This document shows, in pieces, positions 1-16,324 of a stretch of DNA of 53,281 nucleotides (the stretch's first letter is position 1; each line of letters begins with the position of its first letter). The DNA is from a bacterium (GTDB lineage: Bacteria; UBA10199; 2-02-FULL-44-16; DYJF01). The stretch spans positions 1-53,281 of the forward strand of contig JBGSNL010000009.1 of the NCBI GenBank assembly GCA_041739675.1, in the 5' to 3' direction. A program made the position numbers and the translations under genes. Below the pieces are notes generated by a model. That model was not told the origin of the DNA and did not search any database. It saw nothing but the letters and a program-made list of their open reading frames with translations.

Positions 1-72
1 TGGGTGCCAAAAATTCTGTCCACGGGAAGATGAGATAGTCCGACACTTCAGAGAAATCTGGAGGGAACAGTG
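1..72 (+). ncRNA. 3' part of a probable group I intron (truncated by the window start)
   Basis: S-element-like GAGATAGTCC (32-41), P9-like hairpin CTTCAGA-GAAA-TCTGGAG (46-63) with GNRA loop, and terminal G72 directly abutting tRNA position 34. Confidence 0.7.
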
Positions 73-115
73 CTTAATCTGCGGGTTCTGGGTTCGATTC
101 CCGGGCCGCTCACCA
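73..115 (+). tRNA. tRNA-Lys(CUU) 3' exon (tRNA positions 34-76)
   Basis: CTT-AA, anticodon stem TCTGC, variable loop GGGTT, T arm CTGGG-TTCGATT-CCCGG, acceptor GCCGCTC-A-CCA; exactly 43 nt. Confidence 0.85.
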
Positions 116-156
116 AAAAGAGAAAGGCGGCGCCATGCGTCGCCTTTCTCTTTTTG
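116..156 (+). terminator. Intrinsic terminator after the tRNA (potentially bidirectional)
   Basis: AAAAAGAGAAAGGCGGCG-loop-CGTCGCCTTTCTCTTTTT hairpin with T tract. Confidence 0.85.
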
Positions 157-328
157 TTTGCTTGCCGGATGTGAGTCTTGTCAAAAGTTTCGTCCGGAGC
201 AAGTCTTGTCAGACGCAGCGAATTAAACAGGATGCAGCAAAATTGGACAGGTGCACGGAAATGCTACGCTGCTTTTGAAGTCCTTTTCTCAAAATACCCT
301 CTTTCTTCAATATATTTAAGGATCAAGT

Positions 329-344
329 TGGCACGCCACTTGCT
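329..344 (+). promoter_or_regulatory. Sigma-54 (-24/-12) promoter upstream of the transposase
   Basis: TGGCACGCCACTTGCT is a full match to TGGCACG-N4-TTGCW. Confidence 0.65.
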
Positions 345-357
345 GTCGCAAGAAGAC

Positions 358-1077
358 ATGGCTTACCTTCCGAGATACGAGATCATATATGATGATGCCT
401 ACTTCCATGTCACATGGCAATGCCATAACAAAGACTGGCTTCTTCAGTGGGAATGGGCAAAAGGGGCTTATTACGACCTTCTGCTCAAGTATAAAGATAA
501 GTACGGAGTCGAAATCTATTCCTACAATTTTATGGATAACCATCCCCATCTGACTGGCCATCTCCAGAGCAGAGAAAACTTTTCGGCATTCTTCAGGGTC
601 GTTAACAGTCAATTTGCCAGAATAGTGAATAAGCAGCTGATGCGGCGGGGACAAGTTGTCATGGATCGTTTCAAGTCTCCTGTGATCGAGTCGGATGAGC
701 ATATGCTTACGGTCATGGCCTATGTCGATCTCAATCAACATCGGGTAAAGAAGGTGGCACATCCCAGAAAGAACGATTGGTCATCATACCAATACTATGC
801 CTATGGCAAGCCGGACCCCCTAATTACGCCGTCACCTTCGTATTTGGCATTGGGAAGGGATCCGCTGACCCGTCAGCGAGAATACCGCGCCATCGTTGAG
901 GCATTGTTGAAACATCGCAGGACGATGAATATCTCCCACACCCATTTCATTGGTAATCCCCATTGGGTGCTTAAAAAGTATCGGGAGCTGTGCGAGAGAC
1001 TTGGTAGAAAAGTGACTGATGCAATGGTTATCAGATTAACGAGCCCTCCGAGAAAAACTGTCCATCAATCTTTGTGA
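358..1077 (+). CDS. REP-associated tyrosine transposase-like (RAYT, Y1 HUH/IS200 superfamily)
   Basis: FHVTWQCHN, MDNHPHL (HUH), DRFKS, YVDLN, DWSSY motifs; start moved to ATG 358 (MAYLPRY). Confidence 0.85.
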   Translation: MAYLPRYEIIYDDAYFHVTWQCHNKDWLLQWEWAKGAYYDLLLKYKDKYGVEIYSYNFMDNHPHLTGHLQSRENFSAFFRVVNSQFARIVNKQLMRRGQVVMDRFKSPVIESDEHMLTVMAYVDLNQHRVKKVAHPRKNDWSSYQYYAYGKPDPLITPSPSYLALGRDPLTRQREYRAIVEALLKHRRTMNISHTHFIGNPHWVLKKYRELCERLGRKVTDAMVIRLTSPPRKTVHQSL

Positions 1078-1305
1078 TCCGTCTTATCCATTTCAGCATT
1101 CAGGAAGACATTTCGGCCCGGAATTTGCCCTAAACTTAATTTTTATCATTTCCGTCTCTCTTTAATCATCCAAGAGACAAGATAGCCTCACTGAAAGATC
1201 GGCTAAAAGAGCGGCAGAAAGAAAAATCATTACAACAACGTCCCACATCCCATGAATTCAACGCCATATGCCGGAATCCGCTCCGTCTGACTATTCCACG
1301 TCTGA

Positions 1306-1770
1306 CTATTCCATCATGTTTTTTGGCGCCTGCACTGCAACGACCCTGCCCTTTGCGCATACTTCACCTTGAACCGACACAGTGGAAGTTACAATCACTT
1401 TACGACCCTCGACAATCTCCACTTTTCCTCTGACTTCAAGTTCTACGTCAATTGGTGTCGGTTTTAGAAAATCCACATGCAGCGAGGCAGTTACGAATCT
1501 CAGTTCCGGCTCGCTGCCCATTTCGCGCCCTTGAACCCTGTGTGCTGCCGCAGAGGCAGTGCCCGTTGAATGGCAATCAATCAAAGAGGCTATCAGTCCG
1601 CCGTAGACAAAGCCGTTCACAGCCGTGTGATAAGGTTTAGGACGGAAATGACAAACACTTTCTTCTCCGTCCCAATAACTCTTGATGTGAAGACCATGCT
1701 CGTTGAATCTGCCGCAACCGTAACATTGTCCGGCCCAATCGGAGTAATAGTCCTGAAATGATTTTTTCAT
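1306..1770 (-). CDS. PaaI/HotDog-fold thioesterase
   Basis: CYGCG, GFVYGGLIASLIDCH, FVTASLHVDFLKPTP. Confidence 0.85.
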   Translation of the reverse strand: MKKSFQDYYSDWAGQCYGCGRFNEHGLHIKSYWDGEESVCHFRPKPYHTAVNGFVYGGLIASLIDCHSTGTASAAAHRVQGREMGSEPELRFVTASLHVDFLKPTPIDVELEVRGKVEIVEGRKVIVTSTVSVQGEVCAKGRVVAVQAPKNMME

Positions 1771-1841
1771 ATAGTATCGCCTTTATATTTGCGCCGTAAA
1801 ATATGCATACGGATCCTAACTTCATGGATTGCATAATTTTG

Positions 1842-1876
1842 TTGACGTTGCAAGCATAATGAGCATATGCTCATTA
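1842..1876 (+). promoter_or_regulatory. Promoter (-35 TTGACG) overlapped by a perfect 20-bp palindromic operator
   Basis: TTGACG at 1842-1847; TAATGAGCATATGCTCATTA at 1857-1876; AGGAGG RBS follows. Confidence 0.65.
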
Positions 1877-1889
1877 CAGGAGGCAAGCA

Positions 1890-2378
1890 ATGCCGCGCCC
1901 GTGCAAATTCAGACAAATCGGATGCGATCCAGAGCATAACTATTTCAAGCCGCGGGGTATCCCTCTTTTTGAGCTAGAAGAAGTGGTTCTCCAACTCGAC
2001 GAACTGGAGGCCGTACGTCTGGCGGACGTGGAATCGCTCTATCATGAAGAAGCGGCTCTGCGGATGAAGATTTCACGTCAGACGTTTGATCGCATCCTCT
2101 CCAAAGCGCATTCAACTATTGCGGAAGCCATAATAAAGGGCAAGGCAATCAAAATAGAAGGGGGTAATGTTATGACAAACCAAAGGACTTTTCGGTGTTC
2201 GGACTGCAATCACAGCTGGCCGCTGGCCTACGGGACAGGGAGACCTGACGCTTGCCCTTCATGTCAGAGTAAAAACATTCACAGGGCGCCTGAGGAACGA
2301 GGTCACGGTTGTGGTGCCGGCGGAAAGCGTGCCGGAAAAGGAAGGCGATGCATGCGACATGGTCAAAAAACAACTTAA
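1890..2378 (+). CDS. DUF134 (UPF0251) predicted DNA-binding protein with C-terminal Zn ribbon
   Basis: MPRP start, FKPRG, ELEAVRLAD, ISRQTF, GKAIKIEGG; CxxC...CPxC tail. Confidence 0.85.
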   Translation: MPRPCKFRQIGCDPEHNYFKPRGIPLFELEEVVLQLDELEAVRLADVESLYHEEAALRMKISRQTFDRILSKAHSTIAEAIIKGKAIKIEGGNVMTNQRTFRCSDCNHSWPLAYGTGRPDACPSCQSKNIHRAPEERGHGCGAGGKRAGKGRRCMRHGQKTT

Positions 2379-2393
2379 AGGAGGGCATTTGTT

Positions 2394-2771
2394 ATGAAGA
2401 TTTGTTTCCCGATTCTCGTGGATAGGGGGCTTGGCAGCCCCGTTAACAATCATTTCGGTTCGACGAAGGAATTTCTGATCTATGATGCGGATACCGATTC
2501 ATTTGAAACAGTGGAAAATTGCGACGCAGGCCACGTTCACGGCGCATGTCAGCCCATCAATGCTTTGAATGGCAGACAAATAGACGCTGTCATCCTTGGC
2601 GGCATCGGAAGAGGCGCACTGCTGAAACTCAATGCATTAGGCATAAGGGTTTTTAGGGCCGCGGCCCCCCTTGTAGAAGAGAATCTTCAACTTTACCGCG
2701 ATGGCCGTCTCGTTGAAATAAAAGTGGATGATACTTGTGCCGGTCACGGCACGTGCAATCACGGTGATTGA
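2394..2771 (+). CDS. NifB/NifX-family (FeMo-cofactor-biosynthesis-like) protein
   Basis: HFG motif, DAVILGGIG, His/Cys-rich HVHGAC and C-terminal tail. Confidence 0.8.
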   Translation: MKICFPILVDRGLGSPVNNHFGSTKEFLIYDADTDSFETVENCDAGHVHGACQPINALNGRQIDAVILGGIGRGALLKLNALGIRVFRAAAPLVEENLQLYRDGRLVEIKVDDTCAGHGTCNHGD

Positions 2772-2774
2772 TCA

Positions 2775-3314
2775 ATGATTCCCACACGGGTATTTTTCAC
2801 CAAGGGAGTCGGGCGCCACAGGGAAAAGCTTTCTTCCTTTGAGCTTGCGTTGAGGCATGCAGGAATATCGCAATTCAATCTTGTGCGTGTTTCGAGCATC
2901 TTCCCGCCCGGCTGCAAGATCATTCCGAAAGAACAGGGCCGGGAAGCGCTAAGAGGCGGACAGGTCGTCTACTGCGTCATGGCGGATAACGCCTGCGACG
3001 AGGCGGAACGGCTTGTGGTGGCATCGATAGGACTTGCCGTGCCCTGCGACAGGACACACTATGGCTACTTAAGCGAGCACCACGCCCACGGCGTCACGAT
3101 GAAAAAGTGCGGTGACTATGCGGAAGATCTGGCAGCATCGATGCTCGCAACAACATTGGGCCTGCAAGATAAAGACAATCTAAGTTATGATGAAAAAAAG
3201 AAGCAGTGGAGAATGATGAAGATGATCGTAAAAACAACAAGCATTACACAGTCCGCAATCGGGAAAAAAAGTCTCTGGACAACGTGCATCGCGGCTGCGG
3301 TGTTCGTCCCGTAA
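2775..3314 (+). CDS. pdaD: Pyruvoyl-dependent arginine decarboxylase
   Basis: LSSFELALR, FNLVRVSSIFPP (Ser-Ser self-cleavage site), YGYLSEHH, AAAVF C-terminus. Confidence 0.88.
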   Translation: MIPTRVFFTKGVGRHREKLSSFELALRHAGISQFNLVRVSSIFPPGCKIIPKEQGREALRGGQVVYCVMADNACDEAERLVVASIGLAVPCDRTHYGYLSEHHAHGVTMKKCGDYAEDLAASMLATTLGLQDKDNLSYDEKKKQWRMMKMIVKTTSITQSAIGKKSLWTTCIAAAVFVP

Positions 3315-3363
3315 AAATATGGTCAGTCTGATCTTCGCTCCTTCGGTACTCGTCCCTTTTTTG

Positions 3364-3933
3364 CTATTTCTTTTTTCTCAACGCAGGGCAGTCGTTGCAT
3401 GCCTGGGTCGTGCTTTTCGGAGTTGAATAATCGGCGCTGTCTTCCGATGAAGCCGCCGAACTATTTTCGCTGACCTTTGCAGGTGGCGGCGCTGAACCGC
3501 CGTCCCAGATCCAGTTCCCGCCCGTCATAGTTGCAACGCGATTTCTCTGCGGCCCTTCGTTGATTTCAAAAATGATGTCCTGATTCGGATTGAAACGTTC
3601 GGCGATCGCCGGTGCCGCGCTGTCAAGGCGCCGGGAAAGCTCGCGCCCGAAGATTGCGGTCTGCCGCGAAATCAGATCGCGCATCGCATTCCGGTTTTCC
3701 ATCAGGCGCCGGGAAAGAACAGTGACCTCCACATTGATCTTTTCGCCGCCAGTTATTCTCGGCTCGTACGCGACTTTTTCAGATGAGAGATAAAGACTGA
3801 CAATATCAACCTGCGTAGATAACTGCTGGCCCTCGCTTACCATTATCCTCTTGTCCATGTCCGATCTTCTGATCTCGGAAGACGCGGGCAATGCGACAAA
3901 AAGCGCCAGGACGACAAATACTATCCTCTTCAT
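3364..3933 (-). CDS. Hypothetical exported protein
   Basis: Signal peptide MKRIVFVVLALFVALPASS after a GGGGG RBS; low-complexity tail with CxxC. Confidence 0.65.
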   Translation of the reverse strand: MKRIVFVVLALFVALPASSEIRRSDMDKRIMVSEGQQLSTQVDIVSLYLSSEKVAYEPRITGGEKINVEVTVLSRRLMENRNAMRDLISRQTAIFGRELSRRLDSAAPAIAERFNPNQDIIFEINEGPQRNRVATMTGGNWIWDGGSAPPPAKVSENSSAASSEDSADYSTPKSTTQACNDCPALRKKK

Positions 3934-4076
3934 AAGACCCCCTGTTCCATCCCCCACGCCGGTGATGCCCCGACGTCACGAGTTTGTCAATATTGAAGGA
4001 TATGTCTGCAAGAGTGATTGAAGATCAGGATTATGATTAGGACTAAGATCGATGATCTGAGATTGAGGATCGAAGA

Positions 4077-4412
4077 TCATCGTAGCTTGTAGAGCATCTT
4101 GACCACCTGAAGAAGCTGGTCCTGAAGATAAAAAGCATCAGGTTCAGTCATCAGCCTCAGTGCTAACGCGACATCAATGCAAGATGCCGATTCAGCGGCA
4201 GACGCCCTTGCGATTGCAAAAAACCTCGCTCTCTCTGGTATGCCTTTTCTCGCATTTCCCTCAGCAATGTTGAGGAGCACACTTGAAATGGCCCTCTTGA
4301 GCTGATCTTCAAGATAATAAGTACCTTTTGGCCATTTGGCCACAATGCCCGGCACCCTTTTTGCCGCCCCAAGGGCCATCTCGTAACATCTCAGCTTCTG
4401 ATGATTGAACAT
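4077..4412 (-). CDS. Four helix bundle protein (TIGR02436/23S rRNA-IVP family), subtype A
   Basis: DQLKRAISSVLLNIAEG, RFFAIARASAAE; start MFNHQK at 4412 with AGGAGG RBS. Confidence 0.88.
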   Translation of the reverse strand: MFNHQKLRCYEMALGAAKRVPGIVAKWPKGTYYLEDQLKRAISSVLLNIAEGNARKGIPERARFFAIARASAAESASCIDVALALRLMTEPDAFYLQDQLLQVVKMLYKLR

Positions 4413-4416
4413 AAAA

Positions 4417-4492
4417 ACCTCCTTTTTGTGTTTTTTGGCCTCATGGCTCTCACCCTCATGGGAGGCATGAGGCCAAAAAACACACAGGAGGT
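4417..4492. repeat. Long inverted repeat filling the divergent intergenic region
   Basis: TGTGTTTTTTGGCCTCATG (4427-4445) / CATGAGGCCAAAAAACACA (4466-4484), plus outer ACCTCCT/AGGAGGT, which are the two RBSs. Confidence 0.95.
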
Positions 4493-4497
4493 ATTCC

Positions 4498-4842
4498 ATG
4501 AATCATCAGAAGCTGAGATGCTATGAGGTCTTACTAGGTACCGCAAAAAGGTTGCCGGGCATCGTGGCTAGAATGCCAAGAGGACATAATTATATAGTAG
4601 ATCAGCTGAGAAGGGCTCTATCCAGCGGGATACTCAACTTATCTGAGGGAAATGGGAGAACGTCGGCAAAAGAGAGGGCGAGGTTTTTTGACATATCACT
4701 GGCATCTATTGCCGAATCGTCATCGGCTATTGATGTAATGCAGGCGTTCAACTTGATATCAAGACAGACAGGAGACGAATTCAAATCCCAACTGCGAATC
4801 GCCTATGCCATGATCGTCAATCTCAAGAAAGCTGGATTCTGA
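4498..4842 (+). CDS. Four helix bundle protein, subtype B
   Basis: DQLRRALSSGILNLSEG, RFFDISLASIAE. Confidence 0.88.
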   Translation: MNHQKLRCYEVLLGTAKRLPGIVARMPRGHNYIVDQLRRALSSGILNLSEGNGRTSAKERARFFDISLASIAESSSAIDVMQAFNLISRQTGDEFKSQLRIAYAMIVNLKKAGF

Positions 4843-4889
4843 GATCTTAATCTACATCCAGATCGTAATCGACAATTCTAAGCTCTTGT

Positions 4890-6968
4890 CTATTGTACAA
4901 TTGGTTTGAGTTTTACGATAACAGGATTGAACTCGTTGACCGACAGCGTGAGCTTGAGCTCCGTAGGCTGATAGCCGGGCTTTTCCAAGCGGATCCTGTA
5001 GCTCCCGAGCGGAAGATCGTGAAGGATGGCGGGTGTCGGCTGCGTGACCTGCTTGTCGTTGACCATGATGCGCGCCCCTTCAGGCTCCGTATATACATAG
5101 ATCACCGATCTGAAGGGCGATATCTGCTGAAAGAGTGAATTGGCCTCTCTCTTCGTATTGTCATCAGTCGCCTTTAGCATCACCTCGACCAGAAGCGGCA
5201 ACGCCTCACCCATCTTCTGGCCTGCGGCATATGCAGCAACCATTCCGAGCATCGCTGGATATTTCCATTCCTCTGTAGTTCTGGCCTGCGCAAAATATTG
5301 AAGCGCCCTGTCGATGTCGCCCAAGCTCAAGTAACACCGCCCAAGAAGATAGTTCGACTGCGCGACCTCCGTTGGCGCGGGATTCGAGGCCAAAGCCTGC
5401 GCCAGCTCGTTTATCGCCTCCTGCCAGACCTGGCGGTTCATCGCGATCTTCGCGTTGTTGATGTGCGCGCCGGCAACCGAAGTTTCAAGTTTCACAGTTC
5501 CGACAAAAGGAGTGTTGATATCCACTTTAAGCGACTGCGTGTGCTCGAAATATCCCTCTTTTCTGAGAGTGAGAGTGTGATCGCCGAGCGGGAAAAGCCC
5601 TTGATACGGCGTTTTGCCCATGGGCTTACCGTCGATGAAGACGTCGGCGTTGGGCGGCTCCGATTTTATGTCCACAGGGAACACTTTGAGATCCTCGTCT
5701 TTCACATCGAGAAGGTATTGCGGGCTGTCTTCCGCGATATGAAACTCGCGCCTGAAAACGATATCCTGCACGTATGTCTGAGATTGGCCCAATTGCCGCG
5801 CACGCCTGAGCTCCACTATGTAGCGGCCGAACGGTATGTAGATCGGCTTTTGCATTACCACTTCGCTGAGCTTTGCCGGACGCTCCTTGAAGCGGTCGTA
5901 CTCGAAATTGCCTTCAAGATAAAACTGCGTGTCGCGCGGGAGGTTGACAACCTTTATCATCCCGATGGGGGCGCGGAAGAGAATGGGAACGACCGATTGT
6001 CCCGCCTCCACCGTGAAATTGACGGGGAGCGTGTAGCGCTCGTTAAACTCCGGCAACATGAAAGTAGCTTCCGCCGTGTAATTCTTGCCGGGCTCCAGCT
6101 CCACATTCACGCGGAGCGGAGTTTTTCCAAGCTCCTTATCCTGAAAAACAACGATGGCAGGCAAGGGGCTGGACGCGAAATCCAAAAATACCGGAATCGT
6201 CTGCGGTTTGGGCGGCGCGGGCGGGACCGTCGGAACGGCCGGCACTGTAGGGACAGTTCCCTCCGCAGGGGGCACTGTTCCCTCGGGAGGCTCTGCCGGC
6301 TCCCCAACAATGGGGGCTGTCCCCTTCGGATGCAAAAAATATCTCGTGGTGAGATAGCCCACCATACCGATAACACAGACGGCCAAAATTCCCGCCATTA
6401 TGAGCTTCCGGGTCTTTGATGGTGCCGGCGCCTTTGCCGGCTCCACAATGCCGTCGGGCAGGGCCCTCTCCTCTTCCATGCTCTCGGTCATGGCCTCGGC
6501 TCCCGCGGGCATCTCCTGCATCACGGTCTTTTCGCTTATTGCAACCTCGGGCGGGAGGACCATCTCCTCCTCGACTGAAACTTCCTGAGTAATGAGGCGG
6601 AAGAGATAGATGCCGGTCCTTATCACGTCTTTGTGGCCGATCACGACCGCGTCGGTGACCGGTCTGCCGTTGATGGATGTACCGTTCTTGCTGCCCAGAT
6701 CTCTCACGATCCAGCCGGTATCGGTTTTTTCAATCTCGGCGTGGTGGCGGGAAACACTTTGATCTTCCATCCGGACCGCGGAACCGACCGCGCGCCCGAT
6801 CGCGTTTTTTCCCTCTTGCAGGGTGAAATACGAACCGGCGTGAGGGCCTTCGATGAGGACGAGATAAGGCGGTTTTTTGGGCGCGCGCGGAGGAGTGCCC
6901 TCCTCTTCCTCTTCAGGGCCGCGGATCACGGTGCGGTCTTCGGGTTTTGTGTCGGTTGGCTCGGCCAT
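4890..6968 (-). CDS. Membrane-anchored FHA + PEGA + TPR protein
   Basis: FHA motifs GR...SRHHA...DLGSKNGT, one TM segment, PEGA-like repeats (SEPPNADVFIDGK, TEPEGARIMVND), TPR-like helices; start MAEPTD at 6968. Confidence 0.82.
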   Translation of the reverse strand: MAEPTDTKPEDRTVIRGPEEEEEGTPPRAPKKPPYLVLIEGPHAGSYFTLQEGKNAIGRAVGSAVRMEDQSVSRHHAEIEKTDTGWIVRDLGSKNGTSINGRPVTDAVVIGHKDVIRTGIYLFRLITQEVSVEEEMVLPPEVAISEKTVMQEMPAGAEAMTESMEEERALPDGIVEPAKAPAPSKTRKLIMAGILAVCVIGMVGYLTTRYFLHPKGTAPIVGEPAEPPEGTVPPAEGTVPTVPAVPTVPPAPPKPQTIPVFLDFASSPLPAIVVFQDKELGKTPLRVNVELEPGKNYTAEATFMLPEFNERYTLPVNFTVEAGQSVVPILFRAPIGMIKVVNLPRDTQFYLEGNFEYDRFKERPAKLSEVVMQKPIYIPFGRYIVELRRARQLGQSQTYVQDIVFRREFHIAEDSPQYLLDVKDEDLKVFPVDIKSEPPNADVFIDGKPMGKTPYQGLFPLGDHTLTLRKEGYFEHTQSLKVDINTPFVGTVKLETSVAGAHINNAKIAMNRQVWQEAINELAQALASNPAPTEVAQSNYLLGRCYLSLGDIDRALQYFAQARTTEEWKYPAMLGMVAAYAAGQKMGEALPLLVEVMLKATDDNTKREANSLFQQISPFRSVIYVYTEPEGARIMVNDKQVTQPTPAILHDLPLGSYRIRLEKPGYQPTELKLTLSVNEFNPVIVKLKPIVQ

Positions 6969-7084
6969 TTTGGATTCAGTACCATAAATCGAGCCGGGCG
7001 TAAACACTTTGGAAAATAGAAAAAATTGGAACGATAGTTCCCGATCTGGATTTGGTTCCGGAGCCGGAGATCATAGATTCCAGA

Positions 7085-7420
7085 TTATCTTTTGAGCCTC
7101 ATGATCATCGCATATGATATTCTCAGCTCCGACTTGATCTCCTCATTGATCATAGCCGTGATGTATCCATAGGCATTGATGATATCCAAGGCAGATGCCG
7201 TCTCCGCAATAGACGCCAGCGATATATCAAAGAACCTGTTTCTCTCCTTCAGCGATCTCCTGGAATTGCCCTCCGATAAATTCAATATCGCACTTCCCAA
7301 TGCTCTTTTGAGCTGATCTTCCAGAAAATAGTTACCCTTGGGCATCATTTTAATAAGCGTTGGCAACTTTCTTGCGACACCTAGCAGCAAACAGTAGCAT
7401 TTCAGCTTTTGGTGATTCAT
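7085..7420 (-). CDS. Four helix bundle protein, subtype B
   Basis: DQLKRALGSAILNLSEG, RFFDISLASIAE; start MNHQK at 7420 with AGGAGG RBS. Confidence 0.88.
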   Translation of the reverse strand: MNHQKLKCYCLLLGVARKLPTLIKMMPKGNYFLEDQLKRALGSAILNLSEGNSRRSLKERNRFFDISLASIAETASALDIINAYGYITAMINEEIKSELRISYAMIMRLKR

Positions 7421-7425
7421 GTGAC

Positions 7426-7498
7426 ACCTCCTATGGTTTTTGGCCTCTTGCCTCCCCACCCTTATGAGGAGGCAAGAGGCCAAAAACCATAAAGGAGG
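7426..7498. repeat. Long inverted repeat filling the divergent intergenic region
   Basis: TATGGTTTTTGGCCTCTTGCCTCC (7432-7455) / GGAGGCAAGAGGCCAAAAACCATA (7468-7491), 12-nt loop, outer CCTCCT/AGGAGG. Confidence 0.95.
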
Positions 7499-7503
7499 AT
7501 TTT

Positions 7504-7839
7504 ATGTTCAACCACCAAAAGCTGAAATGCTACGAGTATGCGCTGGATGCGGCAAGAAAGGTGCCAACGCTAATCAATAAATGGCCAGCGGGGTACGCAT
7601 ATCTGGAAGATCAGCTGAAGAGAGCGGCGTCTAGTGTTGTATTGAACATTTCGGAGGGCAATTACAGATATTCGGTAAAGGAAAGAGCCAGATTCTTCAT
7701 AATCGCAAGGGCATCTGCGGGAGAGGTATCAGCTATCTTGGATATCGCTCATGCCTATCGTCTCATCTCAGATGAAGATTACAGCTCACTTCAGAGCACA
7801 CTCCTCAGCATTGTAAAGATGTTGTACCGGCTCAGGTGA
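7504..7839 (+). CDS. Four helix bundle protein, subtype A
   Basis: DQLKRAASSVVLNISEG, RFFIIARASAGE; about 62% identical to 4077-4412 by manual count. Confidence 0.88.
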   Translation: MFNHQKLKCYEYALDAARKVPTLINKWPAGYAYLEDQLKRAASSVVLNISEGNYRYSVKERARFFIIARASAGEVSAILDIAHAYRLISDEDYSSLQSTLLSIVKMLYRLR

Positions 7840-7987
7840 TCCTAATCGCTCTTTTCTTAATCCTAATCTTCGTCCTAATCGTTGTTGTTGCTTTGGGATA
7901 CTCCAGCCATTGCACAATCCTCTCGATTACGCTCTAAGTCACCTAAAGCTTGATTTTTAGGTCCAAAATCATCATACTCGCTTACCA

Positions 7988-9070
7988 ATGAAGAGTTTGC
8001 CGCGTATTTTGAAACTTGCCTTGTTCATCCTTGCAATCCCCGCTGTGTCTGCCGCTGCCGGGCGCGAGTGCATCAACTGGCCCAAAATCATGAGCCAGCA
8101 GGCGATAGGCGGCGCCACGTCCGGCAAAATCGTGGTCGCGGAGTCTTTCACCGATTACACAAAAGTTGCGGGAGACGACTGGCTCTCCGCGGGCCTCCGA
8201 GATCTCATCGCAACCATGGTGGCCCAAAGCAAGAGTGTACGCGTCTTTGCGGGCTCCAATGCCGTCTATAATCCGGATGCAAAAAATCCCGCGTTCATAA
8301 TATCGGGGATGTTCCAGCATCTCGAAGGAGGCTTGAGGATTTTTGTCAAATTGATGAAGGGGGAAGACAAGAGTCTCGTCTCGCAATATGAGGTGCTGGT
8401 CCCCTATCCTGAAAGCAGCGAAATATTCACGCGCTTCACCGATGTCGCAAGACAGATATGGGCGACAATTCAGGCGGGCGGCGACGAATCGCGCCTGGCC
8501 ATGGTGCGCGATGCAACCCCGTCGACCCGCGCCTATGAGAGCTACGTCAAGGGAAGGCAGGCGCTGGAAACCTACAAAATGGCAGATATGGAAGTGGCCA
8601 AGACGTGGTTCGAGCAGGCCAAGCGCAATGATTACAGATCCCCTCTGGGTTATCAGGGGATGATAGATCTCTACACGTTTCTTGGATTTTATCACAAGCA
8701 GCGGCACGAACCTTTCGGCTCCTATTTCCAGCAGGCCGAGCAGGAGCTTGCGAATATGACAAGGCTCGCAAAGCGCTTGCCGCTTGTCGTATTGATGGCA
8801 AAAAAACCGACGAAGAAGGAACAAGAGACGGTGAAGCTGGCGAACCGTTTCCTTCTCGATCATGCCTCTTTCAACGAGGGGCTCATCGCCGCTGAAGCGG
8901 GCAACTGGAAAGCGGCGGCCGAGGCGTTCCAGAGTGCGGTCGATTACGTTCCGGAGGACGCGATCGCGTGGTACCATCTTGCGCGCGCCTATGAGAATCT
9001 GGGCAACGCCGCGGAATCGTCAAAAGCCCTGCAGAAGGCATACGAGGTGAACCCGTGCGTGGAAAAATGA
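7988..9070 (+). CDS. Exported TPR-containing protein with TolB-N/CsgG-like N-terminal region
   Basis: Signal peptide, DWLSAGLRDLI...ISGMFQ..LRIFVKL pattern, C-terminal TPRs. Confidence 0.65.
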   Translation: MKSLPRILKLALFILAIPAVSAAAGRECINWPKIMSQQAIGGATSGKIVVAESFTDYTKVAGDDWLSAGLRDLIATMVAQSKSVRVFAGSNAVYNPDAKNPAFIISGMFQHLEGGLRIFVKLMKGEDKSLVSQYEVLVPYPESSEIFTRFTDVARQIWATIQAGGDESRLAMVRDATPSTRAYESYVKGRQALETYKMADMEVAKTWFEQAKRNDYRSPLGYQGMIDLYTFLGFYHKQRHEPFGSYFQQAEQELANMTRLAKRLPLVVLMAKKPTKKEQETVKLANRFLLDHASFNEGLIAAEAGNWKAAAEAFQSAVDYVPEDAIAWYHLARAYENLGNAAESSKALQKAYEVNPCVEK

Positions 9071-10359
9071 AAAAGCGGCATGTGGCATATGGCATGTGGC
9101 ATGTGGGCCGATTAACCTTTGCCCTCTTTTTTCTTCTTGTCTGTCTCTTCACGATGCAAGCACATGCCAAGAAAAAAATTACAAAGCCCACGGATCGCGC
9201 CGTATACCACAACAATCAGGGTGTGTCTTATCTCAACAAGAACGATCTTGAGCGCTCGGAATTCGAGCTCAAAACCGCAATAGAGCTTGCACCCGAATAC
9301 GTCGAGGCGTTCAACAATCTGGGCACTGTCTATAAACTCAAAGGCGATCTTCCTGCGGCAGCAGCGCAATTCAGGCGGGCCATCGATCTCGATAAGGATT
9401 ATGCCAGCGCATACAGCAATCTCGGGGCCGTCTATCTCGCCCAGGGAAACGTGGACGGCGCGATAAATACGATAAAAAAGGGTTTGAAGAAGGACGGAAC
9501 GATAGCGGACGCCCACTACAATCTGGGCCTCGCGTATCTTGAGAAAACAAAGACCGACAAGAGCAAGAGCTACATCGGCATGGCGGAGGCCGAATTCATA
9601 AAAGCGACTGAGCTCAATCCCAATCTCGTGCACGTCCACAAGACTCTGGCGCAGGTGTACAAATCGACCGGCGACTACGATCTTGCGATAATCAGATACC
9701 GTCTGGCGCTCGGAAACGAACCCGCGAACGCGGATCTCTGGAACCAGCTGGGCCAGGTATATCTTGAAAAGGGCGACCAGTTTCAGGCGGAAAACTGCTT
9801 TCAGAAAGCGGTGGAGCTCGGCGCCGCTCAGCCGAAACCGGGGCAGGAAAGCGGAATGGAGATGGGCCTCTTCTACATAAAAGAAAAAAGGTATCAGGAC
9901 GCCGCGAACGAATTCAAGGCGATCATCGAAAAAAATCCGTTGAACGACCAGGCATGGTACCGTATGGGAACCGCGTATCTTTTCTGGGGCGACGACGAGC
10001 GCGCGAAGAAAAACAACTCCGAAGCTACAAGGCTCTACAATGAGGCGGTCGCTGCATTGAAGAAAGCCAAAGAGGTTAACCCGCAATCGGCGGACGCGGC
10101 GTACAATTTGGGCTTGACTTATCTCAAGCAGGGCAAAACACTCGAGGCGCAAAAGGAATGGGAATACACGGTGACAATCTCCCCAAAGCACGCACGCGCC
10201 CTTTACAATCTGGGGCTTCTCTATCAGAAGATGGGGCGCACAGATGACGGTTTCAACATGCTTTGCCGGTTCACGTCCGTCGCCGGAAATCAGTATCCGG
10301 TCGAACTTTCGGCGGCAAGGCAGGCCATAGAGGTGAGCAAATTCAAATGCCAAAACTGA
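9067..10359 (+). CDS. Exported multi-TPR protein
   Basis: Repeated TPR consensus (AFNNLG, AYSNLG, AHYNLG, AAYNLG, ALYNLG); signal peptide; ATGA overlap with the upstream stop. Confidence 0.85.
   Translation: MKKRHVAYGMWHVGRLTFALFFLLVCLFTMQAHAKKKITKPTDRAVYHNNQGVSYLNKNDLERSEFELKTAIELAPEYVEAFNNLGTVYKLKGDLPAAAAQFRRAIDLDKDYASAYSNLGAVYLAQGNVDGAINTIKKGLKKDGTIADAHYNLGLAYLEKTKTDKSKSYIGMAEAEFIKATELNPNLVHVHKTLAQVYKSTGDYDLAIIRYRLALGNEPANADLWNQLGQVYLEKGDQFQAENCFQKAVELGAAQPKPGQESGMEMGLFYIKEKRYQDAANEFKAIIEKNPLNDQAWYRMGTAYLFWGDDERAKKNNSEATRLYNEAVAALKKAKEVNPQSADAAYNLGLTYLKQGKTLEAQKEWEYTVTISPKHARALYNLGLLYQKMGRTDDGFNMLCRFTSVAGNQYPVELSAARQAIEVSKFKCQN
9077..9104 (+). repeat. Four tandem heptamers GGCATRT
   Basis: GGCATGT GGCATAT GGCATGT GGCATGT. 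Confidence 0.9.
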
Positions 10360-11384
10360 TTGTCAACGAACGGGGCAAGAAACACGAGTGGGCGCACCAG
10401 TGTCTGGAAGATGAGATCTCCATCGGACGCATGGAGGAAAATATCATCACCCTTCCGACACAGGGTGTGTCGCGCCAACACGCCAAGGTGGTCCGTGCCG
10501 ATGAAAATTTCTTCATTGTGGATCTCGGGAGCGGAAACGGCACTCTTCTGAACGGCACGATGGTCCGTCCCAACGAGAAAAACCTTCTGCGCAACAACGA
10601 CCTCATTTCGATCGACGCGTTCGACCTGAGATTCTATCTGACCGACGAGGCGCTTGAGAGTTCATATAATGAAGAGATAACCGAGAGCGACATCCTTGAG
10701 GTGAAGCTCTTGAAGAAAGTCATAAGGGCGCTGGACAAGGAAACGGTTCCCAGCCTTGAAGTTTTAAACGGCGTAGCAGAAGGGAAGAGAATTTATTTAT
10801 CAGACGAGATAGTGGAGCTCGTCATCGGCCGCGATCCGGCCTGCGATTTCCCCATCAACGAGTTCGTCATATCGCGCAAACACGCCAAGATTTCAAAAAG
10901 GTGGGGCGGAATCGTAATCAGGGATCTTGAAAGCAAAAACGGCACGTTCATAAACAACCGCCGCGTCGTGGAGGAGTTCTTGCACGACGGCGACCGCATG
11001 GCCCTGGGAACGATCGTCCTCATGTTCAGGAATCCGCAGGAGATAAATCTCGCACAGCTAACGGAAAAAATACCTCCCAAGAGAACTCCGGCGATGATCA
11101 GGCCGGACGAGATACCGATACCTGAAGAGGAGGAGGAAGCGCCGCACGAAGCACCCGCCGAAGAGGAAGCACAGCCAGAGGAGATGGCCCCCGAGGAAGA
11201 AGCATCCGAAGAGGAATGGGAAGAAGGTGAAGAAAGCGTCGCGCGGCCGCAACCCTATCCCCTTCACACACCCAAGAAACCGCTTCTCAAACGTTTTTCG
11301 CCCGTCGAGATAGGCATGATAGGCTTAGGCTCACTTGTGCTCATCTTCGCGTTTATCACGGTAGTCAATCTGATATTCGAGTAA
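10347..11384 (+). CDS. Double-FHA-domain protein with acidic linker and C-terminal TM anchor
   Basis: Two FHA signatures (IGR...SRQHA...DLGSGNGT; IGR...SRKHA...DLESKNGT), Glu-rich linker, terminal hydrophobic helix; start MPKLIV. Confidence 0.85.
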   Translation: MPKLIVNERGKKHEWAHQCLEDEISIGRMEENIITLPTQGVSRQHAKVVRADENFFIVDLGSGNGTLLNGTMVRPNEKNLLRNNDLISIDAFDLRFYLTDEALESSYNEEITESDILEVKLLKKVIRALDKETVPSLEVLNGVAEGKRIYLSDEIVELVIGRDPACDFPINEFVISRKHAKISKRWGGIVIRDLESKNGTFINNRRVVEEFLHDGDRMALGTIVLMFRNPQEINLAQLTEKIPPKRTPAMIRPDEIPIPEEEEEAPHEAPAEEEAQPEEMAPEEEASEEEWEEGEESVARPQPYPLHTPKKPLLKRFSPVEIGMIGLGSLVLIFAFITVVNLIFE

Positions 11385-11464
11385 AAAATCACTTCCTTTC
11401 CATGTGTCATGGGGTTTCCCTTGCGTGAGGCCTAGGCCCTACGTCTCAGAGTTTTGACTCTTGT

Positions 11465-13624
11465 TTACACGTTTGCGGCTTGGAGGGCTTCCTGCGGGAT
11501 ACCCACGCGGGCGATCGGCTGGATGCGCAGATTTTCGGCAAGTTCCTGATATGACAGGACGGAAAGCTGCGGGAACTCAAGCTCCACGATTTTTCTGAAA
11601 TAGCGTCTGATCTCCGCCGTCGTTAAAATTACCGGCGGGCGAGCACCGGGCGGGAACGGATGAGAGGCGATCTCCTTGCCCACCGCCTCGATTATCTCTT
11701 GCGTGGTCTCAGGTTCCAGCGCCAGATAATTTCCTTTCTCCGTCCTTCTTATTGCGTTCTTCACAAGATCCTCGACGTCGGCATCCAGAAGATAAACCGC
11801 TAAAGTGTTCGCTGCGCCGGCGTACTTGTGCGTGATGTAGCGCTTGAGGCCCGCCCTCACATGCTCGGTGAGTGTCAAGGTGTCGCGCTCTATCTCGCCC
11901 CATTGCGCGAGAGTCGAAAAGATCGTCTTCAAATCCCTGATCGCCACGTCCTCCTGCACCAGCCGCTGGAATATCTCGGCCAGCTGCAAGAGCGTGATGA
12001 CCTTGGGAACGAGCTCCTTGACGAGCGCTGGATGTGATTTTTCAAGCTCTGTCAACATCGTCTGCACTTCCTGCAACCCCAAAAATTCGTGCGCGTGTTT
12101 TCTCAAGACAAATGAAAGATGCAAAATCAGATACTCGGCGGTGTCCCACATTCTGAAACCGGCCTGAGTTGCAACGTCCTTGAACTGGTCTGATATCCAC
12201 GTCACGACCGACCCGTCGATCGGATGGATCGTCTCCGTTCCAGTGATATTGAAGAGCTGCAACTGTTCGAGCGGCTCGCCCACAAGGATGTTGCCCTTCA
12301 TGACGCGCCCCTGCGCCACAGGGACTTCGTTGATATTGATGACGTAGGATTCCGGCTCCATGTCGACCGTCTGGCCGCGAACCTGAATGCCCGGAAAATT
12401 GACGCCCAGCTCATAATAGAGGCCGTGCCTCAAAAGCGGAATGAGTTCGTTGATGAAGCGGCCGCCGTCCTGCGCGTCGTCCACAAACGGGATGATGGCG
12501 CTACCAACCTCAAGCGATATGGGCGACGGCATGATGAAGGGCAAAACGTCGCCGTGTTTTTTCACCGCCTTGCGCACGACGTCCTGCTTGGGCGTATCCA
12601 TAATCTCTTTCACCACCTGCTTTTTGGATTTGATAAGCAGCGCGGCTACACCGCCCACCACGATGCCCATTATAATGAAGGGGATCTTCGGCAGCCCCGG
12701 GATTATCGCCATGATGCCCAAGAGCACGGCCGCAATGATGAGCGCCTTGGGATAGGCGGTCATCTGTGTCACGATTTCACGGCCGAGATTCGACGATTCC
12801 CCTTCGGACGCGACGCGCGTCACGACGATACCGGCCGAAACCGATATGATGAGGGCCGGTATCTGCTGCACGAGACCGTCGCCGATCGTCAAGAGCGAAT
12901 AAACCTGAATCGCCTCCACGAAGGTCATTCCGCGCTGGGCAACACCGATGATGAAACCTCCGACGATGTTGATGAGAATGATTATCATGCCGGCAATGGC
13001 GTCGCCCTTCACGAACTTCATGGCGCCGTCCATCGCGCCGTAAAATTGCGATTCGCGCTGGAGCTGCATGCGGCGCTGTATGGCCTGTTCCATGTTGATG
13101 ATGCCGGCCCTTAAATCCGCGTCGATCGACATCTGTTTTCCGGGCATTGCGTCCAGAGTGAAGCGCGCGCCCACTTCAGAAACACGCTCGGCGCCCTTTG
13201 CGATAACGATAAAGTTGATGAGGGTGACGATGAGGAACAAAATACCGCCCACGATGTAATTCCCGCGGACGACGAAAGAACCGAAGGTCCTCACCACCTC
13301 TCCGGCATTGGCCTGCGCAAGAATGAGCCTTGTCGTAGATATGTTAAGAGAGAGGCGGTAGAGCGTGATTATGAGCAGGATCGTGGGGAAAGATGCGATG
13401 CGCAGCGTTTCCGTAATGTAGAGTGCAACTAGTATGATGATCACGGCCAATGTGATCTGGATCGTGAGCAAAATATCCAGAAGCCACGTGGGCAACGGGA
13501 TGATCATCATGCCCACAACGGCGATGACCAGCACAGCGAGGACAACGTCGCTGTACTTCGTCAGCATTTCGTTGAAATTTGCGAAAGAAAAGCCGACTCG
13601 TTGTGCAGGGGCCTCATCTCCCAT
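11465..13624 (-). CDS. sctV: Type III secretion export gate protein (SctV/FlhA, FHIPEP family), probably non-flagellar
   Basis: RFTLDAMPGKQMSIDADL, FYGAMDGAMKFVKGDAIAG, LTIGDGLV; C-terminal VLSYQEL is more SctV-like than FlhA-like. Confidence 0.85.
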   Translation of the reverse strand: MGDEAPAQRVGFSFANFNEMLTKYSDVVLAVLVIAVVGMMIIPLPTWLLDILLTIQITLAVIIILVALYITETLRIASFPTILLIITLYRLSLNISTTRLILAQANAGEVVRTFGSFVVRGNYIVGGILFLIVTLINFIVIAKGAERVSEVGARFTLDAMPGKQMSIDADLRAGIINMEQAIQRRMQLQRESQFYGAMDGAMKFVKGDAIAGMIIILINIVGGFIIGVAQRGMTFVEAIQVYSLLTIGDGLVQQIPALIISVSAGIVVTRVASEGESSNLGREIVTQMTAYPKALIIAAVLLGIMAIIPGLPKIPFIIMGIVVGGVAALLIKSKKQVVKEIMDTPKQDVVRKAVKKHGDVLPFIMPSPISLEVGSAIIPFVDDAQDGGRFINELIPLLRHGLYYELGVNFPGIQVRGQTVDMEPESYVININEVPVAQGRVMKGNILVGEPLEQLQLFNITGTETIHPIDGSVVTWISDQFKDVATQAGFRMWDTAEYLILHLSFVLRKHAHEFLGLQEVQTMLTELEKSHPALVKELVPKVITLLQLAEIFQRLVQEDVAIRDLKTIFSTLAQWGEIERDTLTLTEHVRAGLKRYITHKYAGAANTLAVYLLDADVEDLVKNAIRRTEKGNYLALEPETTQEIIEAVGKEIASHPFPPGARPPVILTTAEIRRYFRKIVELEFPQLSVLSYQELAENLRIQPIARVGIPQEALQAANV

Positions 13625-13648
13625 ATAGGCGGGTTATAGCATACTAAC

Positions 13649-16324
13649 TTATTTGCCGCAGCATTTTTTGTATTTTTTACCGGAGCCGCACGGGCACGGG
13701 TCGTTTCTGCCTACCCTTGGACCCTCGTACTCGACCGTCTTCTGCTGGGCACCAAAATCGCCCTTCGATTCGGCGGGCGCCTCCTTGGCGAAGGCGGTTA
13801 TCTCGCGGTGGGAGATGTTCACCGGCTGGCGCGCACGGGAGGCCTGAGCGGCCCGGGCCACGCTCTCCTCGGTCGTCACCTGCACACGGTAGACCTTCTG
13901 GACAACGTCGGTCGTGAACTGATCCATCATATTGCGGAAGAGGAGATATCCTTCCTTTTTATACTCAAGCAGCGGATCCTTCTGGCCGTAACCCCGAAGA
14001 CCTATGCCCTCCTTCAGGTGATCCATCTGCAGGAGGTGATCCTTCCAGAGAGAGTCGAGCGTCTGCAAAAGAATGATCTTCTCCACCTGCCGCATGATGG
14101 GAGTCGTGTTCCTCGCCTCTCGCTCGTCGTAGTAGGCGACGACACCGTCATAGAGATGCTGCCCCACGCCGTCTTTGGTCTTTTTCTCCGGCGGTATATC
14201 CGCGAAGAAGAAAGGCATGTTGAACGTGGACCTGATCTTTTCCTCAAGAGGTTTGGCGTCGAATTCGGCCTCGATGCGGTCCGGGATATCGACTTCTATT
14301 ATCTGTGTGACGACCTGATCGATTTGATCAAGGATCATGTCCTTCGTGTCGCTTCCCGCCAGTATTTCGCGCCTCAGCTTGTAAACCGATTTGCGCTGCT
14401 GGTTCATCACGTCGTCATACTCGAGAAGATTTTTACGGATGAGGAAGTTGTGGCCCTCTACCTTCTTCTGGGCATTGGCGATCGCGCGCGTGAGCCAAGG
14501 ATGCGTGATCTCCTCGTCCTCTTCCATGCCCAGCCTTTCCATCATAGTGGAGATGCGATCCCCTCCGAAAACGCGGAGCAGGTCGTCTTCAAGCGAGAGA
14601 TAGAACCGCGACGAGCCGGGATCGCCCTGCCTCCCGGATCTTCCGCGCAACTGGTTGTCGATGCGCCTGGCCTCGTGCCTTTCCGTTCCCAGAATGTGGA
14701 GGCCCCCTGCGGCTATCACCTGCTGCTTTTCCGACTCGGCGACTCTTTTGAATTCGACGAGCGTTTTTTGATATTCTTCTTCGGAGGCGTCTTTGCCGGC
14801 CTTCGCGCGGGCGTGAAACACGGGGTTTCCGCCCAGCATGATGTCCGTTCCGCGGCCGGCCATGTTCGTCGATATCGTCACCGCCTTGTAGCGGCCCGCC
14901 TGCGCCACTATCTCCGCCTCTTTTTCGTGGTGCTTCGCGTTCAAAACATGGTGCGGGATGCCGTAGCGCGAAAGCATCTTGGCAACGAGCTCCGACTTCT
15001 CGATCGATATCGTGCCGACGAGGACCGGCTGTCCCTTTTCATGGCACTCTTTTATCTCCTCCACCGCCGCCTTGAACTTTGCATCGACCGTCTTGTAGAT
15101 GACGTCCGGGTTATCCATCCTTATCATCGGCATGTGGGTGGGGATGATCATCACTTCGAGATTGTATATCTTTGCAAACTCGGCCGCTTCAGTGTCCGCG
15201 GTGCCGGTCATGCCTGCGAGCTTATTGTACATTCTGAAATAGTTCTGGAACGTGATGGTGGCGAGCGTCTGATTTTCGTTTTCTATCCTCACACCCTCTT
15301 TGGCTTCCACCGCCTGATGGAGCCCGTCGCTCCAGCGTCTGCCGGGCATGAGGCGCCCGGTGAACTCGTCGACTATCATCACCTGATCGTCTTTCACGAC
15401 ATAGTCGACATCTTTCTTGAATAATACGTGGGCGCGCAGCGCCTGATTCACGTGGTGAACGAGGTTTATGTTCGCCGGATCGTAGAGGTTCGAGACGTTG
15501 AGACGGTGCTCGACGTTTGCCACGCCCTCTTCGGAGAGCATAACCGCGCGGGATTTTTCGTCTGTCGTGTAGTCTTTTTCCTGTTTGAGGTACGGAATGA
15601 TGCCGTTGATGATGTAATAGAGCTCGGTCGATTCTTCGGCGGGCCCCGAAATAATGAGCGGCGTTCTTGCCTCATCTATCAGGATCGAATCTACCTCGTC
15701 GACGATGGCGTAGTTGAGCTGGCGCTGGACGTAGTTCGCGAGGTCGTACTTCATGTTGTCGCGGAGATAATCGAAGCCGAACTCGTTGTTCGTGCCGTAC
15801 ACGACATCGGAATTGTATGACGCCTGCCGCTCTGTATCGTTCAAGCCGTGAAGTATCGTTCCTACGGAGAGCCCCAAAAACTTGTAGATGGCGCCCATCC
15901 ACTCGGCGTCGCGGCGAGCCAGATAATCGTTGACCGTCACGACGTGAACGCCCTTCCCCGTGAGCGCGTTGAGATAAACGGGGAGTGTTGCGACAAGGGT
16001 TTTTCCCTCGCCGGTTCTCATCTCGGCGATCTTGCCTTCGTGAAGAATGACGCCGCCTATGAGCTGAACGTCAAAGTGGCGCATGCCAAGTGTGCGGATG
16101 GAAGCCTCGCGCACGACCGCAAACGCCTCGGGCATGATAGATTCCAGACTCTCTCCGTTTGTGATGCGATTTTTGAATTCAACCGTTCTGGCCCTTAGCT
16201 CGCTATCGGAAAGTATCTTCACGCGCGGCTCAAGCTCATTCACCTGCGTCACAATGGGGCCTATGCGCTTGAGTTCGCGCTCGTTTTTGGTCCCGATGAT
16301 TTTTTTGAAAAAGGTGAGAATCAT
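13649..16324 (-). CDS. secA: Protein translocase subunit SecA
   Basis: [45 protein letters not shown] tail [13 protein letters not shown]. Confidence 0.99.

Follow-up and report, generated by a model that had tools for sequence, protein, structure and literature searches.

Two divergent gene pairs within one contig

The 53,281-bp stretch of DNA analysed here, which we refer to as the window, is contig C31 of a bacterial genome, G000 (1.9 Mb, 94.6% complete). It holds two copies of an element of about 850 bp whose two small genes, A and B, belong to the PF05635/TIGR02436 protein family and are transcribed away from each other. Both copies share one order of parts: a repeat array, gene A, a hairpin of about 85 bp that includes both ribosome-binding sites (RBSs), gene B and a second repeat array. 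In cassette 1, gene A1 (4077..4412, minus strand, 111 aa, subtype A) and gene B1 (4498..4842, plus strand, 114 aa, subtype B) are separated by an 85-bp inverted repeat (4413..4497) with a perfect 19-bp stem (4427-4445/4466-4484) around a core at about 4446-4465, and the Shine-Dalgarno (SD) sites lie at 4418-4423 for A, on the complementary strand, and at 4486-4491 for B. Cassette 2 lies in the other direction, with B2 (7085..7420, minus strand, 111 aa, subtype B) and A2 (7504..7839, plus strand, 111 aa, subtype A) on either side of an 83-bp inverted repeat (7421..7503) whose perfect 24-bp stem spans 7432-7455/7468-7491. An earlier note, made from the letters of the window, had described the four open reading frames (ORFs), both spacers and their stems, AGGAGG sites at the outer ends of each spacer, the subtype motifs and an identity of about 62% between A1 and A2, and we recovered all of these (identity 62%). 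It had counted two cassettes, a number that rises to about ten when the whole of G000 is considered.

Degenerate repeat arrays mark the ends of the element. At the left end of cassette 1, the A-side array (4010..4076, minus strand) is built of TAATC/GATCTT-type units, is C-rich on the A strand and has a repeat score of 18 against a 95th background percentile of 12; homology to the copy on contig C49 begins at 4010, and other copies diverge at 4016. The short B-side array at the right end (4843..4870, plus strand) is weak, with a repeat score of only 6, and this end is common to the C24, C49 and C23 copies up to 4852-4870. In cassette 2, the B-side array (7036..7084, minus strand) has GATCT/GGAAC-type units and other copies diverge at about 7036, with similar sequence found behind the B genes of C72 and C11, while the A-side array (7840..7882, plus strand, TAATC units) has a repeat score of 21 and other copies diverge at 7871-7882. 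The cassette 2 insertion as a whole, judged against the empty site of relatives, covers 7005..7947 and is flanked by two conserved divergent promoter-like stretches. A TAAA direct repeat (7001-7004 and 7944-7947) falls inside this conserved promoter-like sequence and is too short to serve as proof of target duplication. The element has a GC content of 0.45-0.46 against 0.53 for the genome, and its fold-back extends beyond the hairpin through the coding regions at about 73%.

A and B are co-inherited members of one protein family

All four proteins scored above the curated cut-offs of both profiles (Pfam PF05635, 52-83 bits against 33.8; TIGR02436, 55-76 bits against 24). AlphaFold2 predicted A1 to be a four-helix bundle (pLDDT 95), and the model matched 2GSC (Xcc0516) with TM scores of 0.83-0.89, Avd of diversity-generating retroelements (DGRs) with 0.77-0.83, and also BT_0352; the predicted fold is that of the pentameric Xcc0516 and of the RNA-binding Avd pentamer. 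Both subtypes are basic, with a median pI of 9.6 for A and 10.0 for B, and neither A1 nor B1 had a PADLOC match.

To describe the pairing of subtypes we collected 60 distinct genome-derived pairs, of which 51 were typed by start motif, with 7 degenerate pairs and 2 with atypical starts set aside. Every one of the 51 consisted of one A and one B. A second set of 50 pairs (49 metagenomic and one from genome G093; a few truncated, and one at the same locus as an earlier pair) was typed with subtype hidden Markov models (HMMs) derived from the first set and run on the sequence from residue 41, and again all 50 consisted of one A and one B. A/A or B/B units were absent (0/101 typed pairs). Genomes other than that of the window carry A/B pairs with the inverted repeat.

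The expectation that A and B would form separate clades held for only part of their length. Residues 36-111 of 92 full-length pairs separated A from B on a single branch (FastTree, support 98), whereas full-length trees required two label changes in the same 92 pairs and four in a quick IQ-TREE analysis of 34 pairs, because the first ~35 residues, which by themselves need ten label changes (FastTree, 92 pairs), track the cassette. Helices 3 and 4 contain most of the 14 subtype-diagnostic columns. The two genes co-diversify (Mantel r = 0.84 for the C-terminal halves, with 0/999 permutations equally high), and median dN/dS values of 0.11 for A and 0.13 for B, taken over 72 non-independent pairs of which some are near saturation, show purifying selection on both genes. 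Amongst 17 disjoint sister pairs, 25 changes at four-fold sites were shared within the cassette, 3 showed the control pattern and 57 followed the gene, but amino acids followed the gene 543 times against 8. DNA is thus exchanged between A and B, while selection keeps the subtypes distinct. The hairpin arms and the 5′ coding ends have likewise been homogenised between the two genes.

The element is multi-copy, patchily distributed and absent from orthologous sites in some relatives

G000 contains 21 family genes or fragments, made up of six intact pairs, one degenerate pair, five halves, one solo gene that keeps its hairpin and one fragment, and thus about ten cassettes. The contigs of the five halves end inside the spacer. 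Assemblies often break there (the contig ends of C11, C23, C24, C60 and C81 in G000, and many metagenome loci), with the result that counts of cassettes are too low and a half may be taken for a solo gene. Across the phylum, 17/93 genomes, one of them weakly, matched at E ≤ 1e-27, and a single genome had as many as 26 genes. At this threshold the same-family genomes G002 and G003 had no match, and the congeners G021 and G013 (95% complete) had nine and none, respectively. Within the best 79 loci of 397 relatives in a scan of a species-representative collection, paired cassettes came from this group, and the Verrucomicrobia-labelled matches, among those listed, were solo genes with inverted hexamer arrays. 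G093, from another small phylum and with a record labelled Oligoflexia, had one pair (1/17 genomes there), for which mis-binning is possible. A metagenome scan yielded at least 79 loci, and pieces of both window cassettes were present in runs of at least two other studies. No RNA dataset was listed among the runs that contain them, which is uninformative about expression. In viral contigs there were 48 pattern matches, none of which was confirmed as a relative. Sister copies had unrelated flanks in every comparison with flank data, except for one same-locus pair.

Orthologous loci in relatives include empty sites. The cassette 2 site is empty in all four relatives in which both neighbours were compared (G001, G002, G003 and G005), and in metagenome contigs L213 and L214 it is occupied by another subfamily, 92% identical to the C81 copy and 61% to A2. 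G001 carries an insertion at the cassette 1 site; in G005 that site has no gene, and the same two neighbours are adjacent. The site of a third cassette is empty in G001, on which basis the C49 left half is suggested as the partner of the C24 right half in G000, through either an assembly join or a real exchange. At the urocanase 3′ site, G000 and G001 carry different families, which brings to two the number of sites whose subfamilies differ between genomes, and synteny breaks at cassettes. Three sites in all are empty in relatives, and the mobility suspected in the earlier note is borne out as regards spread to many copies, patchy occurrence and empty sites. Nor did we find any of the three patterns it had named as speaking against such an element, since pairs occur in other genomes, A and B split past residue 35 and sites are empty in relatives.

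Other small repeats occur at the cassette 1 site in relatives (L064:4110-4500 in G005, L065:1800-1880 in G004 and L062:830-1000 in G002). These are inverted-orientation heptamer arrays and hairpins like repetitive extragenic palindromes (REP), all without a four-helix gene, and the site is therefore a hot spot for small elements. The FHA-PEGA-TPR, TPR and arginine decarboxylase genes between and around the window cassettes are host genes with orthologues in relatives. Beside secA, at 4890-13624, lies a conserved host cluster with the FHA-PEGA-TPR protein, TPR proteins, a second FHA-like protein and a FHIPEP-family (FlhA/SctV) export-gate gene.

Terminal arrays occur in permuted, repeated and gene-less layouts

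We next compared the ends of the cassettes. Degenerate 5-7-mer arrays lie behind the stop codons, exceeding the 95th background percentile in 26/51 A ends and 37/52 B ends, and are C-rich on the sense strand in 44/51 A ends and 48/52 B ends. Their units vary by family (TAATC/GATCT; ATCGC with TTCTC; CATCA with CGGTT). In the first of three layouts, that of both window copies, there is one array per end. In the second, found in at least 8/53 pairs from more than one protein family, the A array is found, reversed, behind the B array and is missing behind A; this arrangement is the circular permutation of the first. In the third, a direct repeat of up to 116-166 bp is present at both ends (7/60 pairs and 10/38 pairs); these repeats are mostly a unit of B array plus A array, and a few are not arrays. 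A cross-cassette control for such terminal repeats gave 48/3540, mainly from the same array families.

Arrays also occur without genes, at C34:10372, C37:12181, C65:32081 and C25:57473, and some copies have lost the hairpin. A reversed B array plus an A array takes the place of the hairpin and both 5′ ends in three lineages (C53; L026-L028; L045), and this array-replaced centre beat shuffles in 5/7 degenerate loci (three lineages), L163 and L076 being the two in which it did not. In G007, a near-complete 3-contig genome, the hairpin-less copies L026 and L027 are 90.7% alike across 929 bp and lie at unrelated loci, so that the hairpin-less form seems to have been copied. Because such derivatives are dispersed, we favour the terminal arrays, and not the hairpin, as cis-sites.

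Several loci combine array units with other genes. At C11:20590-21325 of G000 (L292:2091-2826), an unrelated 175-aa ORF lies between two direct copies of the cassette end unit. Both its start and its stop fall within the arrays, and it resembles a captured gene cassette; it has no Pfam match, and its Atlas neighbour is a 'putative DUF3592 domain' (score 0.96). At C25:56200-57540 of G000 (L296), an ORF6N gene and a solo B-like gene are bounded by three copies of the array, and the B-like gene has retained its hairpin and part of the antisense start of A. Of 257 gene ends, 11 had additional copies of their downstream sequence at a distance; most loci were <5 kb, and some of these copies are a promoter-like motif. 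Runs of AT-rich orphan genes are headed by a conserved motif of ~25 bp whose spacing is sigma-70-like (TTGCAA, 17 bp, TARAT-like). This motif is found at C25:55969, C34:13620, C60:477, C69:13266 and 14706, and C85:34186 in G000 and also at L029:5655 and in L291, and often lies directly behind gene A of permuted cassettes. Among the genes that follow it are one with a PD-Lambda-3_A match (E 1.6e-21) and one for a SIR2-like protein, and the motif is possibly a mobile promoter for accessory or defence genes.

The central hairpin varies in its arms and loop orientation and is predicted to occlude both RBSs

The two hairpins have folding z-scores of −9.8 to −11.5 on both strands, with 0/200 shuffles as stable in each case. 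Perfect stems of at least 19 bp with a loop of at most 30 nt occur seven times in the 1.9-Mb genome, six of them as cassette spacers. An Rfam search returned only generic hairpin matches below gathering scores. Spacer length is nearly constant (80-91 bp), and the best-kept part of the spacer is a core, CTCYCR-N6-YGRGAG, that adjoins the loop. The arms differ between families yet remain self-complementary, the mean identity of the B-side arm being 60% to other cassettes' arms versus 79% to its own partner arm. The loop of cassette 2 is inverted relative to A when compared with cassette 1 and with its sister C72, and across sister comparisons, which are not independent, 20/54 loops were flipped, 32 had the same orientation and 2 were unclear. 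The flips include exact ones (C34/C85), one in the 3-contig genome G007 and a single locus with both orientations in two assemblies (L005/L224). Passages of one published study (PMC8604942) describe template switching as homogenising palindrome arms and inverting spacers, so that no special enzyme is required, and we take both the flipping of the loop and the homogenisation of the arms to be passive results of template switching by the polymerase, as that process predicts, and not a function. We also considered the loop as a fixed directional switch and rejected this, its orientation relative to A being 25 versus 17, with 9 unclear, of 51. At L021:2311-2454 in G007, both arms of a 142-bp spacer are enlarged symmetrically, a direct sign of arm-to-arm copying.

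We then estimated the energy needed to open the RBSs, having found that mean unpaired probability from SD to ATG separated the RNAs weakly (0.09-0.48 for read-through and 0.43-0.60 for loop-start RNA). For cassette 1, the predicted opening energy was 26-29 kcal/mol in read-through RNA against 6-7 kcal/mol in RNA starting in the loop, and for cassette 2 it was 21-31 against 6-7 kcal/mol. The gap exceeded 5 kcal/mol for both genes in 46/46 cassettes, and the median of nine host starts was 8.7 kcal/mol. In these models the hairpin would block translation of both genes in read-through transcripts. We found no intrinsic terminator inside the spacers. The earlier note had proposed an A/B oligomer that acts on, or is controlled by, its own hairpin. 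Control by the hairpin is consistent with the predicted occlusion, whereas action on it is weakened by the freely varying arms, the loop flips and the occurrence of hairpin-less derivatives at several unrelated sites.

Candidate mechanisms of spread

These observations establish a real, conserved and apparently undescribed element that behaves like mobile DNA, and they support the proposal that A and B form a self-contained module. As to mechanism, we lean, with moderate confidence, towards a self-propagating dispersed element that uses host enzymes. Two co-inherited, constrained four-helix-bundle genes, one A and one B, have likely been copied to new intergenic sites; their basic products would assemble into a mixed ring that binds the terminal repeat arrays and passes the element ends to host recombination or repair enzymes. 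The intermediate is probably a circle joined at the two arrays, and the central hairpin may serve as a lock on translation of both genes in read-through transcripts.

A number of points weigh against such self-propagation. The element encodes only its two PF05635 ORFs and no catalytic mobilising protein, and none co-occurs with it in a screen that covered RVT_1 and Y1: reverse transcriptase (RVT_1) is absent from G000 and shows no enrichment (7/16 carriers versus 8/16 non-carriers), and Y1/RAYT shows no association (14/16 versus 15/16). Contigs of four sequencing runs contained no joint skipping the whole cassette and no strand-switch joint, with one low-depth contig skipping 77 bp of spacer 2, and amongst short loci 0/19 contigs were circular. 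The closest within-genome copies are already at dS 0.11-0.49, so that copying is slow. The ends are ragged with no clear target duplication, most copies, both of those in the window included, have no terminal repeat, and we found no sigma-70-like promoter in either window spacer. Tandem duplication followed by deletion could also have produced the permuted and terminally repeated layouts, and near-identical copies, such as the C49 left and C24 right halves, may be mis-joined in assembly. The covariation of array units with protein family does not show binding, because the units are inherited together with the genes. Finally, selection in place for the host could be an alternative. The window also contains a RAYT-like Y1 transposase gene (178-1077) behind a tRNA-like stretch and a terminator-like hairpin, with several homologues in G002 and G003, and an array scan found no cassette array beside it.

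A further account, possible but rather doubtful in our estimation, is transposase-free integration, in which the A/B ring would recognise the degenerate arrays and move the cassette by way of circles joined at them, and would also take up unrelated ORFs, of which some are defence-like, between array copies.

We regard as unlikely a domesticated association of the REPIN/RAYT kind, in which A and B would act on behalf of the host wherever they sit, perhaps as RNA chaperones or transcription insulators working on the C-rich arrays, and copies would be maintained by host selection and rarely multiply. The C-rich arrays on the sense strand, which resemble Rho-loading sites, would suit this, as would the re-use of the same sites and the low dN/dS even among one genome's paralogous copies at dS 0.2-0.5, and parts of one report offer RAYT/REPIN as a precedent for slow, long-lived elements (10.1101/2021.07.10.451892). 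Hard to reconcile with service to the host are the absence of the whole set from the close relatives G002, G003 and G013, a GC content below that of the genome, the isolated carrier in another phylum (G093) and the dispersal of truncated copies that are unable to encode intact proteins.

Could the hairpin itself be a working cis-site, bound or nicked by an A/B oligomer, in its extruded form or at the CTCYCR-N6-YGRGAG core, as an origin or recombination site? The conservation of the core, the almost constant spacer length, the roughly symmetric positions at which hairpin-less derivatives are broken and the grip of Avd on stem-loop RNA, as sections of one preprint have it (10.1101/2023.10.23.563531), all suit this idea. 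We nonetheless judge it improbable, given the flipped loops, with one locus seen both ways, the greater likeness of the B-side arm to its own partner than to other cassettes' arms and the hairpin-less copies at several loci; recombination between cores in opposite orientation would moreover yield A/A or B/B units, of which there were none.

Similarly improbable is a passive history. Here a single ancient inverted duplication would have become fixed as an A/B pair whose function has nothing to do with spread, with the palindrome maintained by template switching and the copies multiplied and rearranged by host recombination between repeats. Such a history leaves unexplained the clean insertions into short stretches between genes that hold no cassette in relatives, the re-occupation of a site by another subfamily and the presence of up to 26 genes beside none in kin. 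It agrees with the reported effects of template switching on arms and spacers, the silent-site homogenisation (25 versus 3 for the control), the coincidence of cassettes with synteny breaks and the lack of G-U strand bias in the coding fold-back (777 versus 841) or in the arms (21 versus 22). A strand-specific RNA rod was rejected on the same G-U counts. Most improbable of all are integrated copies of a viroid-like, ambisense, rod-folding circular RNA or single-stranded DNA replicon with one ORF per strand and a hairpin at each rod end, for although the fold-back and the permuted and terminally redundant copies would fit, and a circle joined at the arrays would form a rod closed by a hairpin at either end, the complementarity is accounted for by paralogy plus conversion (2559/4177 A/B mismatches are transversions), and we found no reverse-transcriptase link, viral-contig relative or circular contig.

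Relation to known systems and significance

Proteins of the same family as A and B are encoded by intervening sequences (IVSs) of 23S rRNA (Coxiella S23p, Leptospira), and passages of one study call the Coxiella IVS a selfish element, with a long terminal stem and heptamer repeats beside its ORF (PMC4990558). Unlike these ORF-bearing IVSs, the present element is intergenic and multi-copy, has two divergent subtypes with strong SD sites, is under purifying selection and carries its hairpin between genes, not in rRNA. There was no rRNA match in window positions 1-9000, where the neighbours are protein genes, and an IVS-like basal stem, scored as an inverted flank match, reached threshold in 2/60 pairs, the window cassettes scoring 29 and 23 against a threshold of 36. 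Solo PF05635/TIGR02436 genes (2GSC, 2RLD) share the profile and predicted fold of A and B, and Verrucomicrobia-labelled ones, among the matches listed, are likewise flanked by degenerate hexamer arrays; they differ in being single, lying between co-oriented genes, having inverted arrays of opposite polarity and lacking an A/B partner or shared hairpin. Avd (4DWL, 8UB7) resembles the A1 model in predicted fold and basic charge and, according to parts of a preprint, is a pentamer that binds stem-loop RNA (10.1101/2023.10.23.563531), but its identity to the element's protein is only 10-11%, and neither the element nor G000 has a reverse transcriptase. No long two-copy direct repeat was present among the 20 largest repeat families of window positions 1-16000, in a search that included no dedicated test for a template or variable repeat (TR/VR). 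Lying outside rRNA and having no reverse transcriptase, the element is neither an IVS nor a DGR.

REPIN/RAYT systems, as portrayed in parts of one report (10.1101/2021.07.10.451892), have dispersed repeat units, gene-less repeat doublets and slow turnover in common with this element, whose protein genes differ in travelling with the repeats, in not being HUH transposases and in having no link to Y1/RAYT presence. Like insertion sequences (ISs) and miniature inverted-repeat transposable elements (MITEs), it is multi-copy, with empty sites and truncated non-autonomous derivatives; unlike them, it has ragged ends and no transposase, and shows no clearly conserved terminal inverted repeat and no clear target duplication. 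To integron gene cassettes there is a resemblance only, in the ORF tightly bounded by direct repeats on C11 of G000. Although PF05635 itself is known, the defining features of IVSs, DGRs, ISs/MITEs and REPINs are absent from this architecture or not clearly present in it. We found no description of a divergent PF05635 pair in full-text searches whose coverage of subscription journals was thin.

Structures have been solved for PF05635/TIGR02436, a widespread family that, to our knowledge, has no assigned function. The element offers a compact test system for it, with two proteins, two array types and one hairpin, and about 100 natural variants with family-specific array units make specificity testable by swapping. 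The family also turns up at CRISPR loci, as noted in passages of one article (PMC3936711). If the element does spread without encoding a transposase, recombinase or reverse transcriptase, it would represent a class of mobile DNA missing from current catalogues, and would explain the presence of the PF05635 family in rRNA intervening sequences and at CRISPR loci, together with its likeness to Avd. Were transposase-free integration at the arrays to prove true, the system would be an integron-like gene-capture machine and would provide the first activity for the whole PF05635 family.

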